A stretch of DNA of 64,000 nucleotides from the sequence record MK327933.1. The stretch is one strand, 5' to 3'. Every line of letters starts with the position of its first letter. Position 1 is the first letter of the stretch. Below are positions 2,721 to 42,937 of this stretch, piece by piece. The notes below the pieces were generated by a model. The model was given only the letters and a program-made list of their open reading frames with translations. It had not been told where the DNA came from and did not search any database. The position numbers and the translations under genes are program-made. Source of the DNA: Escherichia phage vB_EcoM_G2285.

Positions 2721-3683
2721 TTATTTCCAAGTCAGTTCGCAGGTCAGTTGAAGAAGCATATACATAACATGTAATTCAATATTACTTGCTAATCCATGAA
2801 ACTTATTATTTTCGCCTGCAATTTCATAAAGCGAAATAATACTTTTACCTGGTGCAACTTTGTCATAACACTCAGAAACTAATTTATCGATGAACCATGA
2901 ATAATCAGCGGCATATTTTGGAGCTAACGCACGAAGCTGTTTGATATCTTTATTTTTCATTGCTTCTATGACATCATCTACCGTGCCACGATCATTGGTT
3001 ACAATCGACAAAATACCTGCATCAAGAACACCTTTAGACGAGTACTGGTCTAATTGACCAATTGTACGTCGAAAGTCCGGGAAGTTCTTTTTAACCAGAG
3101 CTGCAACAACTTTCATATCAGCGATTTCGATATTTTCGTTCTTACAGATTTCAACCATGCGATGAATCATTTTCTTCATCATTGAGATTTTATCTTCTTC
3201 GGTTGGACGTCCGAATTCGATAACTCGACAACGACTACGTAACGGTTCGATAATTCCATCGATGTTGTTGGCAGTAATAATAATAGAACAGTTACTAGAG
3301 AATTCTTCCATGAATGTACGAAGGTGACGTTGTGATTCAGCGAGGCCACTACGGTCAAATTCATCAATAACAATAACTTTAGGCTTGCCTTCCATTGAGA
3401 CTGAACGAGCGAATGCAGTTAATGGGCCACGCACAAAATCAATCTTACAATCAGAACCGTTGACGAACATCATTTCGGCATTGATATCATTACATAATGC
3501 TTTTGCTACGGTTGTTTTACCTGTACCAGGAGAAGGAGAGTGTAAAATAATATGAGGAAGTTTTCCTTTAGATACTAAAGACTTGAATGTTTCATGGTCA
3601 TACGCAGGCAGAATACATTCGTCAATGGAAGAAGGACGATATTTCTGTTCTAGAATGTGTTCTTTGGAATTGATAGTAATCAT
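2721..3683 (-). CDS. 44: Clamp loader ATPase gp44
   Basis: 320 aa; Walker [11 protein letters not shown], Walker [12 protein letters not shown] motif (LRSRC) typical of RFC-like clamp loaders. Confidence 0.9.
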
Positions 3684-4804: not shown

Positions 4805-5340
4805 TTTTTAGAACGAATAGAAACTTTCTCTCTTCGTTCTTTGGTCCAATATGTTTTTTGAAATTCTCTAATTGCGTTTAAATGATTCTCCGACAATTTG
4901 CAATTTTTTCTAACACCGACGTAATCTTCATTTATTTCGTTTTTAGAAAGTTTTACTATTTTGCCTGTTTTTAAATTTTTATACGGTGCGTATCCTTTAG
5001 CTGATATTCTAGACTTCTCGTTAGCATAAGCCTTATTAAAATATTTTTCATTTGAAACGGCTTTAACATTGAGTTGGAATAGTCTTTCTATTCTTCTAGG
5101 GTCTAATGTGGTTTCGCCTAAAATTTTTACAGAATATTCGCCTTGGTCTATTAATCTGTTATATAAAGGAGAATACGAGGAATTAACACTACCGGTATAT
5201 ATTTTACCGGTAGAATCTTCAATAATATCCTTTCCATTAAAATGACACGAAACTTTAGAACCTATATAATAACACGGGTATTCATTTTTAATCTCACGAT
5301 TATAAAAGGTTATAAGATATATTAAATTCATAATTATCAA
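4777..5340 (-). CDS. Seg-like GIY-YIG endonuclease (catalytic domain), inserted between rpbA and 45
   Basis: 187 aa; N-terminus NLIYLITFYNREIKNEYPCYYIGSKVSCHF resembles the GIY...YIG motif; ATGA overlap with the rpbA stop. Confidence 0.5.
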   Translation of the reverse strand: MIIMNLIYLITFYNREIKNEYPCYYIGSKVSCHFNGKDIIEDSTGKIYTGSVNSSYSPLYNRLIDQGEYSVKILGETTLDPRRIERLFQLNVKAVSNEKYFNKAYANEKSRISAKGYAPYKNLKTGKIVKLSKNEINEDYVGVRKNCKLSENHLNAIREFQKTYWTKERREKVSIRSKKCLAIEILL

Positions 5341-32280: not shown

Positions 32281-32409
32281 TTCTGTATTTACCCATTACC
32301 GCACTTGGGCTCGACCTTATTACAGGTTGGCGGGAATCCCTCACAGAATCATGAGGTCCAGCTTGTTCCCATGTTATTTGAATGTAAATAGGCCTAAGTA
32401 TAGGCCTTA

Positions 32410-32988
32410 TTAATTACCACGGGCTGCATTAGCAACGGCGTAAGCGTACTGAACATTAGCGTCCTTAAACGTACCTTTAGAGGTATCTATTTCTGCCTTA
32501 AAGCCGCCTTTAGCCATAACATCTGCAAATTCTTTACGGAAAGCCATTGCATCAAGACCTTTCCATGTTGATTTATGCTTGGCAAATTCAAGACCGGCGT
32601 AGTTGACAGCCTTAGCTAATTTATTATCAATAACCCATTTACCTGCTTTAGGCACAAACTTCGGGCCTTTTTGTTTAGAGAACAGTTTTAAATTCCAGCG
32701 ACGAAGGTCACTGTCGGCTTTAACAAAAGCTGCATCTAAGTTACTAGCAACAACATCTTCAATATGAGCAAATTTAAGTCCGTCAACTTCAATATTTAGA
32801 TCGTTACGCCAGCGAAGTCCTTCCCAAGCGAAGGCTTTAAAATCAGAAGCCTTTGTAGCTAAGTACCGTTCAATAGGAGCAGTTTTAGGGTCAAAGCCGT
32901 TTCCGCCACGATAAGTCCACTCGTCCTTATTAATGCCTTGAGCTTTTCCTGCAAAGGCCTCGGCGATAAATTCTTTATATGTTTTCAT
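32410..32988 (-). CDS. ipIII: Internal protein III (capsid-packaged, injected)
   Basis: 192 aa; N-terminal capsid-targeting sequence MKTYKEFIAEA; basic, alanine/lysine-rich. Confidence 0.75.
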   Translation of the reverse strand: MKTYKEFIAEAFAGKAQGINKDEWTYRGGNGFDPKTAPIERYLATKASDFKAFAWEGLRWRNDLNIEVDGLKFAHIEDVVASNLDAAFVKADSDLRRWNLKLFSKQKGPKFVPKAGKWVIDNKLAKAVNYAGLEFAKHKSTWKGLDAMAFRKEFADVMAKGGFKAEIDTSKGTFKDANVQYAYAVANAARGN

Positions 32989-33052
32989 TTTTTGTTTCCT
33001 TGTTTGTTTTGATAGAGTAATTATACCATATTAATACTTAAGCGTAAACAAT

Positions 33053-33313
33053 TTAAGCTTTACCGCCAGAAATAATTCCGAAGTTGTTAAAATCGTATCC
33101 AATATCGTCAACATCTACTTTAGGACTTGCTACAACATAAGCAATTTCACTACGTTTTGCATAGGTGTTGATTTCTTTACCATCGCCACCTAAGAAAGAA
33201 TACCCATTACGCTTTAATGAGCCAAAGTCTTCCGCATCACCAATGAAAGCTTTAACTTTAAATTTGGGGTCTTTGACATCTGCTTCAATGATAAATTCTT
33301 GATACATTTTCAT
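33053..33313 (-). CDS. ipII: Internal protein II-like
   Basis: 86 aa; N-terminal MKMYQEFIIEA capsid-targeting sequence. Confidence 0.65.
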   Translation of the reverse strand: MKMYQEFIIEADVKDPKFKVKAFIGDAEDFGSLKRNGYSFLGGDGKEINTYAKRSEIAYVVASPKVDVDDIGYDFNNFGIISGGKA

Positions 33314-33321
33314 TTTTTTCC

Positions 33322-33735
33322 TTAGTAAATTGATTTACCATAGTATTTGTACCAAGTCGGACGTTGAGCAATTTTTTCATCTAAGCGTGCTTGACTTATC
33401 GCAATGGACGCTTCGGACGGGACGTAATTATTACGAAATTCTACAGGAATGTCGGAAATATCCTGGACAGTCGTGTCCTTGATTTTGAAACCACGTTTCA
33501 AGCATTCAGCGATTAGCTCGATTTGACGTAAACGTAAAAATTCGAGTTTGTCGTAAAAGAATGTTACGTGACCTGTGCCTAAGATAAATGTTGGAGGGAT
33601 TTTAAAATCCTTTACACGTTTACCGTTTTGAACATGTTTACGGACTGAACCAAATACGCGTGGTAATTCACGATACTCAGCCATAAGATGTTGGTCGGTC
33701 AGTTCAGAAACAAGTGTTAAATTGATACGGGTCAT
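33322..33735 (-). CDS. denV: Endonuclease V (pyrimidine dimer DNA glycosylase) DenV
   Basis: ORF 33322-33747; from [29 protein letters not shown] it is 138 aa (DenV length); GGAGG 6 nt upstream. Confidence 0.9.
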
Positions 33736-33738
33736 AAT

Positions 33739-33792
33739 TTCCTCCAAGTAGTTGATGAATGTATAGTATCAAAGTCCTTGGAGGAAGTAAAC
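33739..33792 (-). promoter_or_regulatory. Early-type promoter with 10-bp inverted repeat overlapping the denV Shine-Dalgarno
   Basis: Minus strand GTTTAC (plus 33787-33792); arms TTCCTCCAAG (33739-33748) and CTTGGAGGAA (33777-33786). Confidence 0.45.
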
Positions 33793-33793
33793 A

Positions 33794-34075
33794 CTATTTT
33801 TCTGAAGCGCCTGAAATATATTTTTCAAGACGTTGTTTCATTAGCGAGCCGTTCTTAGCGATTTCTTCCGGTTTATCGCACATACGCAACAAGGCTTCAA
33901 GCTTAGCGATATTGCTGGTACGTTCAAATTTGCGAGTATCTATCTTACTAGCAAGTTCAGAAATACGTGCTAATAGACTTTCGGCTTCAACCAAAGCTGC
34001 ACCTAGCTTAGTTGCAAATGTGTCAGTAGCTTCGTTAAGAATAGATTCTGATAAAAATTCACTATATGTTTTCAT
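33794..34075 (-). CDS. Internal-protein-like small protein with capsid-targeting N-terminus
   Basis: ORF 33794-34090; from internal Met [16 protein letters not shown] it is 93 aa; same MKTYxEF leader as ipII/ipIII. Confidence 0.55.
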
Positions 34076-34560
34076 ATATACGCTTTCCAAGTTCCTGTTT
34101 TAAATGTTGAGATTACGCGTTTCGCGCGATTAGGTGTCTGACGATACCATTTAGATTGGGCTAGATTTACTGCCGCTTCATCCCAACGTTTCTGTTGAAG
34201 AATACGAAGAGAATTAGTAAAACCGGCGACGCCTGCTACACCCATTTGGAAGACCATATTGACCAATGCACATCGACGAACTGCATCTAAAGAATCGTAT
34301 ACCGGTTTAAGTTTAGCATTACCCAAGATTCCGCGAACGGCTTTATCAACGTCTTCATTAAATAGCTTTTCAGCCTCATCAAGGGTAATTGTACCGTTGC
34401 ATTTACGTCCGATCATTCTGTCAAGTTCAGCTTTAGCTACGGCTAAAGACGGGTTCTTTGTTACTAAATGGCCTATGCCAATCGTCCAAAAGCCTTCAGT
34501 GTCTTTGTATAAAGTCGGTCTAAGACCTTCGTCATTACGAAGCATTTCAAATATATTCAT
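34072..34560 (-). CDS. e: Lysozyme e (endolysin, T4 lysozyme family)
   Basis: ORF 34072-34572; from [32 protein letters not shown] with catalytic Glu/Asp/Thr context; C-terminus ...[15 protein letters not shown]. Confidence 0.9.
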
Positions 34561-34594
34561 AATACCTCCCACGTTTATAGGAGGTATTTATTAC

Positions 34595-35053
34595 TTATAG
34601 GAGGGTAGTGAGCACCTTATATAATGATTTGCCCATTACATATTCCCATTGAGAAGGTTTAATTAAAGCGAATGCATCAAATTCAGGAATCTGTCGTCCG
34701 TCTGGGAATGTATGATAGGAATTACAAACACTGTTTCTGAATTGCTCGTGCTCTACAGGGATGGTATATAAGAACAGATGAATATTCTTATTGTCTGAGT
34801 AATGATGTTCACCTAGGTCTTTCAGGAAGGCAGGGTCATACTGTGTAAACCCAGTTTCTTCTTCGCATTCACGAATAGCGGCTTCAATAGGAGATTCGCC
34901 AGGTTCGACACGGCCTTTAGGAATATCCCACCGATGAGCTAATGCACCTTTAGGACGAGAACCAGTTACACGGCCCATGAATAATTCTTTATCTTCGGTA
35001 AGGAAAATAATACCGGCTGATAGTTCTTTCACTTTATTTTTCTTACTCATCAT
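34595..35053 (-). CDS. nudE: Nudix hydrolase NudE
   Basis: 152 aa; Nudix box GRVEPGESPIEAAIRECEEETGF. Confidence 0.85.
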   Translation of the reverse strand: MMSKKNKVKELSAGIIFLTEDKELFMGRVTGSRPKGALAHRWDIPKGRVEPGESPIEAAIRECEEETGFTQYDPAFLKDLGEHHYSDNKNIHLFLYTIPVEHEQFRNSVCNSYHTFPDGRQIPEFDAFALIKPSQWEYVMGKSLYKVLTTLL

Positions 35054-42175: not shown

Positions 42176-42183
42176 TTGTTTTG

Positions 42184-42221
42184 ATAGGACTACTATAACA
42201 TAGTCCTATAGGCTTGTATAC
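42184..42221 (-). promoter_or_regulatory. Promoter/stem-loop cassette (PeSL-like)
   Basis: Palindrome ATAGGACTACTATAACATAGTCCTAT (42184-42209) and -35-like GTATAC (42216-42221). Confidence 0.5.
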
Positions 42222-42223
42222 CT

Positions 42224-42487
42224 TTATTTCAAATATATTGCGTATTTTTTATAGCCACCAGGCTCGTGTCGAAGACCTTTATCATTCGCAAAACGTTGAA
42301 TGTTATTGAACTGATTTTCATCAAGTTCGGATGTGTCAAATATGAAAAAGTTTCGTTTGTTACCAAGCGTGATATGCGGAGTTAAGTCAATGTTATACAA
42401 ATTAAGAATATCAGCAATAACCTGTTTGGCCGCTTTGTTAATTTTCACACCAGACGATTCTGAGATGAATTCGTTGAAAGTTTTCAT
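42224..42487 (-). CDS. Internal-protein-like small protein with capsid-targeting N-terminus
   Basis: ORF 42224-42499; from MKTFNEFISESSG it is 87 aa; located in the ipI-equivalent locus next to 57B. Confidence 0.55.
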   Translation of the reverse strand: MKTFNEFISESSGVKINKAAKQVIADILNLYNIDLTPHITLGNKRNFFIFDTSELDENQFNNIQRFANDKGLRHEPGGYKKYAIYLK

Positions 42488-42511
42488 TTTAGGTTCCATT
42501 TGGTTGTTTTG

Positions 42512-42549
42512 ATAGGACTACTATAACATAGTCCTATCATGTTGTAAAC
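42512..42549 (-). promoter_or_regulatory. Promoter/stem-loop cassette (PeSL-like)
   Basis: Palindrome ATAGGACTACTATAACATAGTCCTAT (42512-42537) plus minus-strand GTTTAC (42544-42549). Confidence 0.5.
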
Positions 42550-42857
42550 TATTTTATTCCGCGTGATGCAATTGTGTTCTGTCGTTTAACACCAGTTTGT
42601 TTAAAGTCATGATTGTCGATTTGATCGGTACGAGCAACTCCGAATGATGATTTGATTTTAGCTTTAGATCCTTTAGTTATAGAAATAAACATCTCGGAAG
42701 CCCCTTTCTTAAAGTCCGAAGCGATTACTTCAACACCGTTCTTAGCAAGTGACTTCAGAATTGCATCCGCAAACTCATCGTCAAGACCTACCTGAGTATA
42801 AATAATAAATGTCTTTGGTGCAGCAGCTTCATTGATAAATTCTTTAAATGTTTTCAT
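42549..42857 (-). CDS. Internal-protein-like small protein with capsid-targeting N-terminus
   Basis: 102 aa; N-terminal MKTFKEFINEAAA; basic. Confidence 0.55.
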   Translation of the reverse strand: MKTFKEFINEAAAPKTFIIYTQVGLDDEFADAILKSLAKNGVEVIASDFKKGASEMFISITKGSKAKIKSSFGVARTDQIDNHDFKQTGVKRQNTIASRGIK

Positions 42858-42886
42858 TTTATTTCCTTTAATTTTGTTTTGTTTTG

Positions 42887-42924
42887 ATAGGACTACTATA
42901 ACATAGCCCTATAACATTGTAAAC
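42887..42924 (-). promoter_or_regulatory. Promoter/stem-loop cassette (PeSL-like)
   Basis: Palindrome ATAGGACTACTATAACATAGCCCTAT (42887-42912) plus minus-strand GTTTAC (42919-42924). Confidence 0.5.
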
Positions 42925-42937
42925 TGTTTTGTGAAAA

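Follow-up and report, generated by a model that had tools for sequence, protein, structure and literature searches.

The gene between lysozyme e and denV of phage vB_EcoM_G2285: assignment to the Ip5 family of T-even internal head proteins and a candidate anti-defence role

In this study, we analyzed a window of 64,000 nucleotides from Escherichia phage vB_EcoM_G2285 (MK327933.1), a genome of the Mosigvirus (RB69-like) type, with a focus on the minus-strand open reading frame (ORF) at positions 33794–34075, which encodes a protein of 93 aa. Judged by homology, this ORF almost certainly represents, in Mosigvirus, the Ip5 family of internal head proteins known from T-even phages. As the best explanation for the whole, to which we assign a probability of about 0.5, we propose that this Ip5-family protein would be expressed in coupling with lysozyme e, packaged, processed by gp21 and ejected, and would inhibit a nuclease-type host defence. 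The literature and RefSeq annotation already cover the gene together with its leader and family, as well as the anti-defence hypothesis, and such a gene is ordinary for this phage group.

A first-pass annotation of this DNA had seen no obvious family for the ORF, which is contradicted by database matches, by named relatives and by RefSeq. The protein matched PHROG 3499 'internal head protein' over residues 1–87 (E = 1.5e-45), the same PHROG that is matched by Ip5 of phage RB51 (E = 3.7e-50), and was 50% identical to RB51 Ip5 (BLASTP, E = 1.6e-24), 46% identical to T2 Ip5 and 90% identical to RB69ORF127c, which occupies the same position between e and denV. Its sequence equals that of QBO62551.1 of vB_EcoM_G2285, to whose proteins the other small leader-bearing products of the window are likewise identical. 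It is present at an identity of at least 95% in 232 phage records, and in many Mosigvirus genomes it carries the RefSeq name 'internal head protein'. The GenBank note of RB51 already ties Ip5 to RB69ORF127c. According to PMC3012670 and PMC12373910, Ip5 was first described among the polymorphic internal-protein (IP) genes by Repoila et al. (EMBO J 1994).

With Ip5 of Tequatrovirus phages (T2, T6, RB51, wV7) the protein shares, besides PHROG 3499 and 46–50% identity over ~84 residues, the type of leader with L/I-x-E at residue 15 and the core motifs KLGxALxEAExL..RIxELA, EIAKNGS and KxRLE. The differences concern the C-terminus, which is 8 residues longer in the 93-aa protein, and the gene position, since in Tequatrovirus a free-standing gene occupies the interval from 57B to trna.4, in the other of the two IP loci, whereas the gene of the window lies between e and denV. 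RB69ORF127c (NP_861817, 'internal head protein') is the orthologue, with identical position, length and ATGA overlap with e and with a mature part (residues 16–93) that differs at only two positions. Its leader, however, reads MNFYQNLS at residues 5–12 instead of SEFLSESI, a scrambling that results, in the RB69 record, from the loss of one nucleotide and the gain of another 22 nt away. The leader form of the window protein is that found in p000v and moha.

Beyond these relatives, the family appears isolated. Sequence searches of Pfam, NCBIfam and PDB with the 93-aa protein gave nothing meaningful, and a word-indexed homology search returned only 5 near-identical clusters. Since an exhaustive phmmer search of 1.84 billion representatives with the mature part gave only 3 clusters, the Ip5-like family is tiny; the same search gave no link to a wider superfamily at the sequence level, and among isolated phages the relatives are T-even phages. 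For the mature part, dN/dS values of 0.06–0.29 were obtained from four Mosigvirus genomes, based on small counts and similar to those of denV and e, which argues for a real gene at 33794–34075.

The gene belongs to a larger set of ORFs with a capsid-targeting leader (CTS). The first-pass annotation had described three such ORFs around denV, and all three were recovered on the minus strand with exactly the N-termini quoted there. Their locus, the e/denV/vs.8 region, is one of two that have classically been known for polymorphic IP genes, the other being the 57B/trna.4 region. As had been claimed, each begins with a T4-type CTS, which has Y4, F7 and a terminal L/I-x-E protease motif. The three genes are real, but the window contains five in total: a six-frame scan with MK[TM][YF]xEF gave 5 matches, all of them starting real same-strand ORFs of 86–192 aa, compared with 0 matches in 200 shuffled sequences (a looser leader motif gave a mean of 0.4 and a maximum of 2 matches per shuffle). 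The leader motif thus occurs far above chance. The additional genes, both on the minus strand beside 57B in the 57B-proximal IP locus, encode an Ip7-like protein of 102 aa (42549–42857) and an Ip9-like protein of 87 aa (42224–42487; PHROG 7673). The end at 34090 that had been given for the region corresponds to an upstream in-frame TTG of the 93-aa ORF; the ATG at 34075, which gives the leader as described, is the annotated start in relatives.

Of the neighboring genes, all on the minus strand, the one at 32410–32988 (MKTYKEFIAEA) was rightly called ipIII, as its product is 92% identical to T4 IPIII over 192 aa (PHROG 5341, E = 1e-117). The name ipII for the 86-aa ORF at 33053–33313 (MKMYQEFIIEA) did not hold, because T4 IPII aligns only over the first 13 residues and belongs to PHROG 7857, whereas the ORF belongs to PHROG 2667. 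Without homology in the mature part, a relationship to T4 IPII was rejected, and sequence comparison identifies the ORF as the orthologue of RB69ORF125c in the Ip7-related family PHROG 2667; its mature part is acidic (pI 5.2). A tblastn search with T4 IPII found leader-only matches and no IPII homologue in the window, and no IPI homologue was found there. Thus T4 IPII and IPIII share their leader with the CTS proteins of the window, but only IPIII has a 92% orthologue. With denV (endonuclease V, pyrimidine-dimer glycosylase; 33322–33735; PF03013, PHROG 1183) and lysozyme e (34072–34560; Pfam Phage_lysozyme), the gene order is e-Ip5like-denV-ORF125like-ipIII, compared with e-ipIII-ipII-denV in T4, so that the Ip5-like gene holds the slot directly downstream of e that is taken by ipIII in T4.

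In the sequence ATGA (34072–34075), the e stop codon and the Ip5-like start codon overlap, and the same 4-nt overlap is present in RB69, p000v and moha. Because of this overlap, the Ip5-like gene would be translated by coupling to e, with which it is presumably co-transcribed. In the e leader, RNA folding places a minus-strand hairpin at 34561–34588 (−16.3 kcal/mol, z = −3.2; none of 200 shuffles reached this stability). It is predicted to bury the ribosome-binding site of e, a feature known from the T4 gene. Perfect T4 late promoters (TATAAATA) were absent from the coding strand of both IP loci, and where the T4 e leader has two perfect late-promoter copies, that of the window has only AATAAATA and TATAAACG. 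Upstream of ipIII, a cassette of promoter and stem-loop type is located on the minus strand at 32989–33052 (TTTACG-17-TATAAT with extended TG, then CTATCAAAACAA); a conserved copy is found on the same strand at 42176–42223 and further copies at 42488–42548 and 42858–42935. A terminator-like palindromic hairpin (32390–32407) directly follows the ipIII stop codon.

The 93-aa protein begins with MKTYSEF, in agreement with the CTS consensus M-K-T-[Y/F]-x-E-F, and carries two gp21-type L/I-x-E motifs, L-S-E10 and L-N-E15|A. In the family alignment, no variation is seen at M1, K2, T3 or F7 and almost none at Y4; every member has L/I-x-E at residue 10, 11 or 15, with the L-N-E15 position common to most but not all. 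For the T4 system, it was shown that CTS residues 4 and 7 drive targeting and residues 8 and 10 processing, that gp21 cuts after L/I-x-E, and that a 10-residue CTS is enough for packaging of foreign proteins (PMC9026906). We therefore consider it quite probable that the 93-aa protein is packaged and processed. In the proposed course, the N-terminal CTS would attach the protein to the prohead's scaffolding core, and the prohead protease gp21 would remove the leader by cutting after L-N-E15 and/or L-S-E10. Cleavage at residue 15 would separate a predicted propeptide (residues 1–15; 34031–34075) from a predicted helical mature protein (residues 16–93; 33797–34030) of ~8.6 kDa and pI 8.8, which would form a helical bundle, stay in the head and be ejected with the DNA. 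The searchable literature yielded no virion proteomics or ejection data on the 93-aa protein or on Ip5; for virion proteomics of Mosigvirus in general, the HY01 paper, which identifies only five major bands, was the only relevant source.

Another reading takes the leader as a vestige; co-expressed with lysozyme, the protein would then act unpackaged in the cytoplasm at a late stage of infection. It would fit with the position of the gene inside the e operon, where it lacks the promoter/stem-loop cassette that accompanies three of the four other CTS genes, and with the RB69 record, in which two compensating frameshifts scramble the leader and the rest of the gene is intact. The RB69 variant, however, still retains Y4, F7 and LNE15, and the near-invariance of the leader residues together with an L/I-x-E within 15 residues even in distant members, as well as the sufficiency of a 10-residue CTS (PMC9026906), speak against this reading, which we regard as very improbable.

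The alignment-based AF2 model of the 93-aa protein shows a compact helical domain (pLDDT 78–92 for residues 21–90) with a less confident leader (pLDDT 64 for residues 1–20). With the single-sequence AF2 model, Foldseek gave 0 hits in PDB and BFVD, and overall the fold searches with models of the 93-aa protein provided generic long-helix matches only.

Within the mature part, the motifs L-[VA]-E30|A and I-[SK]-E40|L are kept throughout the family, including members with as little as 44% identity, and are possible gp21 sites, whereas the other internal proteins examined have 0 or 1 L/I-x-E beyond the leader. This raises the alternative that the protein is packaged via its leader but is no effector, being an accessory protein of the core or scaffold type or a DNA-associated filler, which gp21 may cut at E10/E15, E30 and E40 into small peptides, as it does with T4 gp22, gp67 and gp68. 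Cleavage of T4 core proteins into fragments by gp21 is established (PMC9026906), and the predicted all-helical nature and high conservation within the genus resemble a structural component. Two internal L/I-x-E motifs are, however, by our estimate about what chance would give in a Leu/Glu-rich helix of 78 residues, and in the model both lie inside the confidently folded helix 1, where they are perhaps inaccessible. Since Tequatrovirus phages such as T4 do without the Ip5-like family, it is not needed for head assembly in general. On balance, we regard a core or filler role as unlikely. A less likely variant of the inhibitor proposal uses the same motifs: gp21 would cut at the conserved E30 and E40, and the injected species would be a peptide of ~53 residues.

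For an Ip5-like protein packaged and processed in this way, the most likely role would be that of an early-acting inhibitor of host nuclease-type defence against hypermodified DNA, for example of a GmrSD-like type IV enzyme. This proposal is made by analogy with T4 Ip1, Ip2 and Ip3, which each block a distinct GmrSD enzyme and have the leader alone in common (PMC12373910). The starting point of the first-pass annotation, that T4 internal protein I inhibits a host restriction nuclease, is correct (PMC9026906, PMC3012670); IPII and IPIII of T4 are inhibitors of GmrSD-ECOR21 and GmrSD-ECOR17, respectively (PMC12373910), and the literature already takes injection as an anti-defence effector as its working model for every T-even internal protein (PMC3012670; PMC12373910). 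An anti-defence role for the 93-aa protein is thus a reasonable suggestion by analogy but not a new one.

T4 IPI*, the inhibitor of GmrSD-CT596, has in common with the 93-aa protein a CTS-type leader ending in L/I-x-E (IPI is cut after residue 19), a small mature protein of ~8–9 kDa, a gene in a polymorphic IP locus and presumed travel with the DNA. It differs in fold, with a beta-sheet core flanked by helices (PMC3012670) instead of the predicted all-helical structure, and its mature part is without sequence similarity to the 93-aa protein. Likewise, no similarity of the mature domain to Ip2 or Ip3 was found beyond the leader, which does not exclude an inhibitor function because no relationship exists among the proven inhibitors either. 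A DNA-mimic (Ocr-like) mechanism was rejected since the mature protein is mildly basic.

Among the observations that weigh against the proposed explanation are several described above: the absence of a perfect late promoter from the locus, the lack of similarity between the mature domain and the T4 inhibitors or database entries, the generic fold matches and the internal L/I-x-E motifs. Two more concern the inhibitor role. The near-invariance in Mosigvirus, seen in the number of records and the low dN/dS, counts against an arms-race gene, for which a hypervariable pattern is expected, and ip4–10 showed no reproducible inhibition in assays against 15 GmrSD variants (Silas et al.). Both points would suit a protein that is injected but has a target outside defence, for example in early host takeover or in shielding the ends of the incoming DNA: a host target that is itself conserved would be in keeping with the high conservation, and Alt, another packaged T4 protein, is a host-takeover enzyme and not an anti-restriction factor (PMC9026906). 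Yet all three CTS-type internal proteins of known function inhibit type IV restriction (PMC12373910), and the Ip5-like protein is too small for an enzyme and has no recognisable motifs, so that such a target seems even less probable than a core or filler role. Taking the analogy and these objections together, we place an anti-restriction or anti-defence role of the 93-aa protein slightly below even odds.

A more specific form of the inhibitor proposal, in which the Mosigvirus protein, conserved across the genus and coupled to lysozyme, is injected to inhibit some host defence, is tentative and rather doubtful. One candidate target would then be a sensor of arabinosyl-hmC DNA, either a type IV enzyme or one of another kind; RB69-type DNA carries this modification and is restricted by GmrSD enzymes (PMC6024577).

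The discovery value of these results is small and their practical value modest. They allow a correction of labels, as these proteins of vB_EcoM_G2285, deposited under the name 'hypothetical protein', are internal head proteins, and they define the repertoire of the phage as five leader-bearing proteins, namely IPIII and the ORF125c-type, Ip5-like, Ip7-like and Ip9-like proteins, without IPI and IPII. If true, the injected-inhibitor reading would for the first time assign a function to the Ip5 family and raise the number of pairs of internal protein and defence system to four, and the family is a reasonable candidate for screens with wild E. coli such as those that solved Ip2 and Ip3.

The first-pass annotation had found no obvious family for the 93-aa ORF at 33794-34075 (minus strand) between e and denV. 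This has to be revised, since its product matches PHROG 3499 'internal head protein' (E=1.5e-45, residues 1-87), as does RB51 Ip5 (E=3.7e-50), and since tblastn gave matches in 496 phage records. In 232 records the match is at least 95% identical, and all of those among the matches listed adjoin the lysozyme gene, while in 258 it is less than 60% identical (42-50% among the matches listed); examples inspected from the latter group correspond to the gene annotated as Ip5 in T2, RB51, wV7 and relatives. Also, the RB51 record describes its Ip5 as 'similar to Ip5 from T6, T2, RB15 and RB70 and RB69ORF127c'. RB69ORF127c (AY303349/NC_004928) is likewise 93 aa long, is flanked by denV and e with a 4-nt overlap with e, carries the RefSeq name 'internal head protein' and, at 90% identity, is by sequence the orthologue. 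In Tequatrovirus, Ip5 is located at the 57B-trna.4 locus, whereas the Mosigvirus family member directly follows e, a slot occupied by ipIII in T4. When 1.84 billion representative proteins were searched exhaustively by phmmer with the mature part as query, only 3 clusters were returned; judged from these searches, the Ip5 family is tiny, and those of its relatives that come from isolated phages belong to the T-even group.

The Ip5-like gene is the third of six genes in a single co-oriented minus-strand row across 32410-35053, which in the direction of transcription comprises nudE (34595-35053), lysozyme gene e (34072-34560), the Ip5-like gene, denV (33322-33735), an 86-aa ORF (33053-33313), and a 192-aa ORF (32410-32988; N-terminus MKTYKEFIAE). 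The previously quoted N-termini of the three non-enzyme ORFs (93, 86 and 192 aa) were reproduced. In a six-frame scan of the 64-kb window, the leader motif MK[TM][YF]xEF was matched five times, each time at the start of a real minus-strand ORF, and not once in 200 shuffled sequences. The three leader-bearing genes reported around denV are thus real, but the window holds five in two loci instead of three in one. The other two are located directly downstream of 57B and encode an Ip9-like protein (42224-42487, minus strand; 87 aa; MKTFNEFISE; PHROG 7673) and an Ip7-like protein (42549-42857, minus strand; 102 aa; MKTFKEFINE; PHROG 2667; 65% identical to RB69ORF156c). The Ip9-like ORF has an in-frame ATG upstream at 42499 (MEPK-MKTF...), with the same prefix as in the RB69 ipI annotation.

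The name ipIII for the 192-aa ORF was correct (92% identity to T4 IPIII over the full length). The name ipII for the 86-aa ORF could not be kept: T4 IPII aligned over residues 1-13 only (BLASTP), and tblastn of IPII against the whole window gave leader-only matches. T4 IPII belongs to PHROG 7857; the 86-aa protein matches PHROG 2667 (E=3.7e-21, residues 1-84), which is also the family of the Ip7-like protein, and is 96.5% identical to RB69ORF125c. An IPI homologue was not found in the window, whereas RB69 has one (PMC6024577). By sequence, the repertoire of this phage is therefore IPIII, an ORF125c-type protein, and Ip5-, Ip7- and Ip9-like proteins. Polymorphic internal proteins bearing the capsid-targeting sequence (CTS) have been on record at both loci from 1994 onwards, and 10 or more are reported (PMC12373910), and the initial observation is a known feature read correctly with two labelling errors.

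The four small leader-bearing proteins are identical in every residue to QBO62551, QBO62549, QBO62572 and QBO62573 of vB_EcoM_G2285, deposited as 'hypothetical protein'. The 32410-35053 region shares 96-98% DNA identity with many genomes of Mosigvirus, a group of RB69-like Tevenvirinae (best: phage moha, 98.2%). An extra CTS gene of ~104 aa, RB69ORF124c-like, was seen between ipIII and the ORF125c-type gene in some close relatives, namely p000v (3215-3529 of the segment compared), PHB12, AV112 and others; the corresponding window interval 32989-33052 is without it, so that the locus varies by insertion and deletion among members of the genus. In a 90%-identity protein collection, the ORF125c-type protein clustered with 137-aa DenV proteins and the Ip7-like protein with 134-aa proteins of unrelated length, which appears to be an artefact of the clustering rather than a biological signal.

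In the Ip5 family alignment, M1, K2, T3 and F7 are invariant and Y4 nearly so, followed by variable positions up to about residue 20 and three conserved blocks (K23-L-G-x-A-L-x-E-A-E-x-L-x-x-R-I-x-E-L-A42, K58...L63...C66, and E71-I-A-K-N-G-S77...K80-x-R-L-E84). The motif L/I-x-E, recognized by the prohead protease gp21 (PMC9026906), is present in the first 15 residues of every member. Two such sites, L-S-E10|S and L-N-E15|A, occur in the window protein; P0004, RB69 and Tequatrovirus Ip5 have only the residue-15 site, P0006 and P0008 only the residue-10 or -11 site. Cleavage is predicted to remove 10-15 residues as a propeptide and to leave a mature protein of 78-83 residues (8.6-9.2 kDa, pI 7.8-8.8). 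L/I-x-E motifs ending at E30 (ALVE|A, residues 28-30) and E40 (ISE|L, 38-40) are also conserved in the Ip5 family, while past the leader no more than one such motif occurs in any of the other internal proteins checked; this faintly hints that gp21 would additionally cut inside the protein. The RB69 leader is odd (MKTYMNFYQNLSLNE; 5150-5204 of the NC_004928 segment compared, versus window 34020-34075): measured against the window, p000v and moha, it has one nucleotide deleted and one inserted at a distance of 22 nt, which scrambles residues 5-12, with Y4, F7 and LNE15 retained. Possible causes are a genuine change in the lab strain and a sequencing error of long standing.

AF2 with an 8-sequence alignment gave a compact helical domain (mean pLDDT 80, pTM 0.59; helices at residues 4-44, 47-50, 56-65 and 69-91); the lower confidence at residues 1-20 of this model fits a flexible leader. 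The single-sequence model consisted of one long and one short helix. Neither fold nor sequence comparison with PDB, BFVD, Pfam and NCBIfam gave an informative match.

A conserved cassette lies upstream of ipIII and the Ip7- and Ip9-like genes, three of the five with a CTS, and upstream of the trna.4-like gene (32989-33052, 42176-42223, 42488-42548 and 42858-42935, all minus strand); it consists of GTTTAC, 17 nt, TATAGT or TATAAT, CTATCAAAACAA, and a ribosome-binding site, with a palindrome TAGGACTA...TAGTCCTA over the -10 box. Repoila et al. reportedly described conserved flanks around IP genes, which these cassettes would match. A terminator-like hairpin lies 3′ of ipIII. The cassettes resemble the 'promoter-early stem-loop' (PeSL) elements proposed as gene shufflers in hyperplastic regions of T4-type phages (PMC2839356).

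The Ip5-like gene is without a cassette; as its start codon and the stop codon of e overlap in ATGA and its Shine-Dalgarno is weak, its translation is probably coupled to that of e. The Shine-Dalgarno of e is buried in a stable hairpin at 34561-34588 (minus strand; -16.3 kcal/mol, z = -3.2), as in T4, where the hairpin is reported by McPheeters et al. (1986) to confine lysozyme synthesis to late transcripts. Late co-expression with e would suit a prohead component. The T4 e leader has two perfect late promoters (TATAAATA), whereas imperfect AATAAATA and TATAAACG are found at the same spot in the window. The Ip5-like/denV spacer (33748-33793, minus strand) contains GTTTAC and, ~18 nt on, TACTAT, possibly an early promoter for denV; the Ip5-like gene would then be the last in the e transcription unit.

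Across four Mosigvirus genomes, dN/dS of the mature part was 0.06-0.29 (2-9 synonymous versus 0-2 non-synonymous differences), comparable to denV and e. These values indicate that the gene is functional, under purifying selection and not fast-evolving within Mosigvirus.

Family membership, leader, protease motifs and locus being established, the route of the protein can be drawn from T4 biology (PMC9026906, PMC3012670): the leader would dock it in the scaffolding core, gp21 would then remove the leader, and the mature protein would remain in the head and exit with the DNA. Reviews regard internal proteins as injected anti-restriction factors (PMC3012670), which is confirmed for Ip1-3. Against such a role of the Ip5-like protein stand the assays of ip4-10 with 15 GmrSD variants, which gave nothing reproducible (PMC12373910), and the strong conservation of the gene, which is not typical of arms-race loci. 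T4 Ip1, Ip2 and Ip3, mutually unrelated apart from the leader, each block a single, specific type IV restriction enzyme of the GmrSD type (PMC12373910), and RB69-type DNA, which contains arabinosyl-hmC, is cut by GmrSD enzymes (PMC6024577). By analogy with these, the Ip5-like protein would most likely act as an inhibitor of some nuclease targeting modified DNA.
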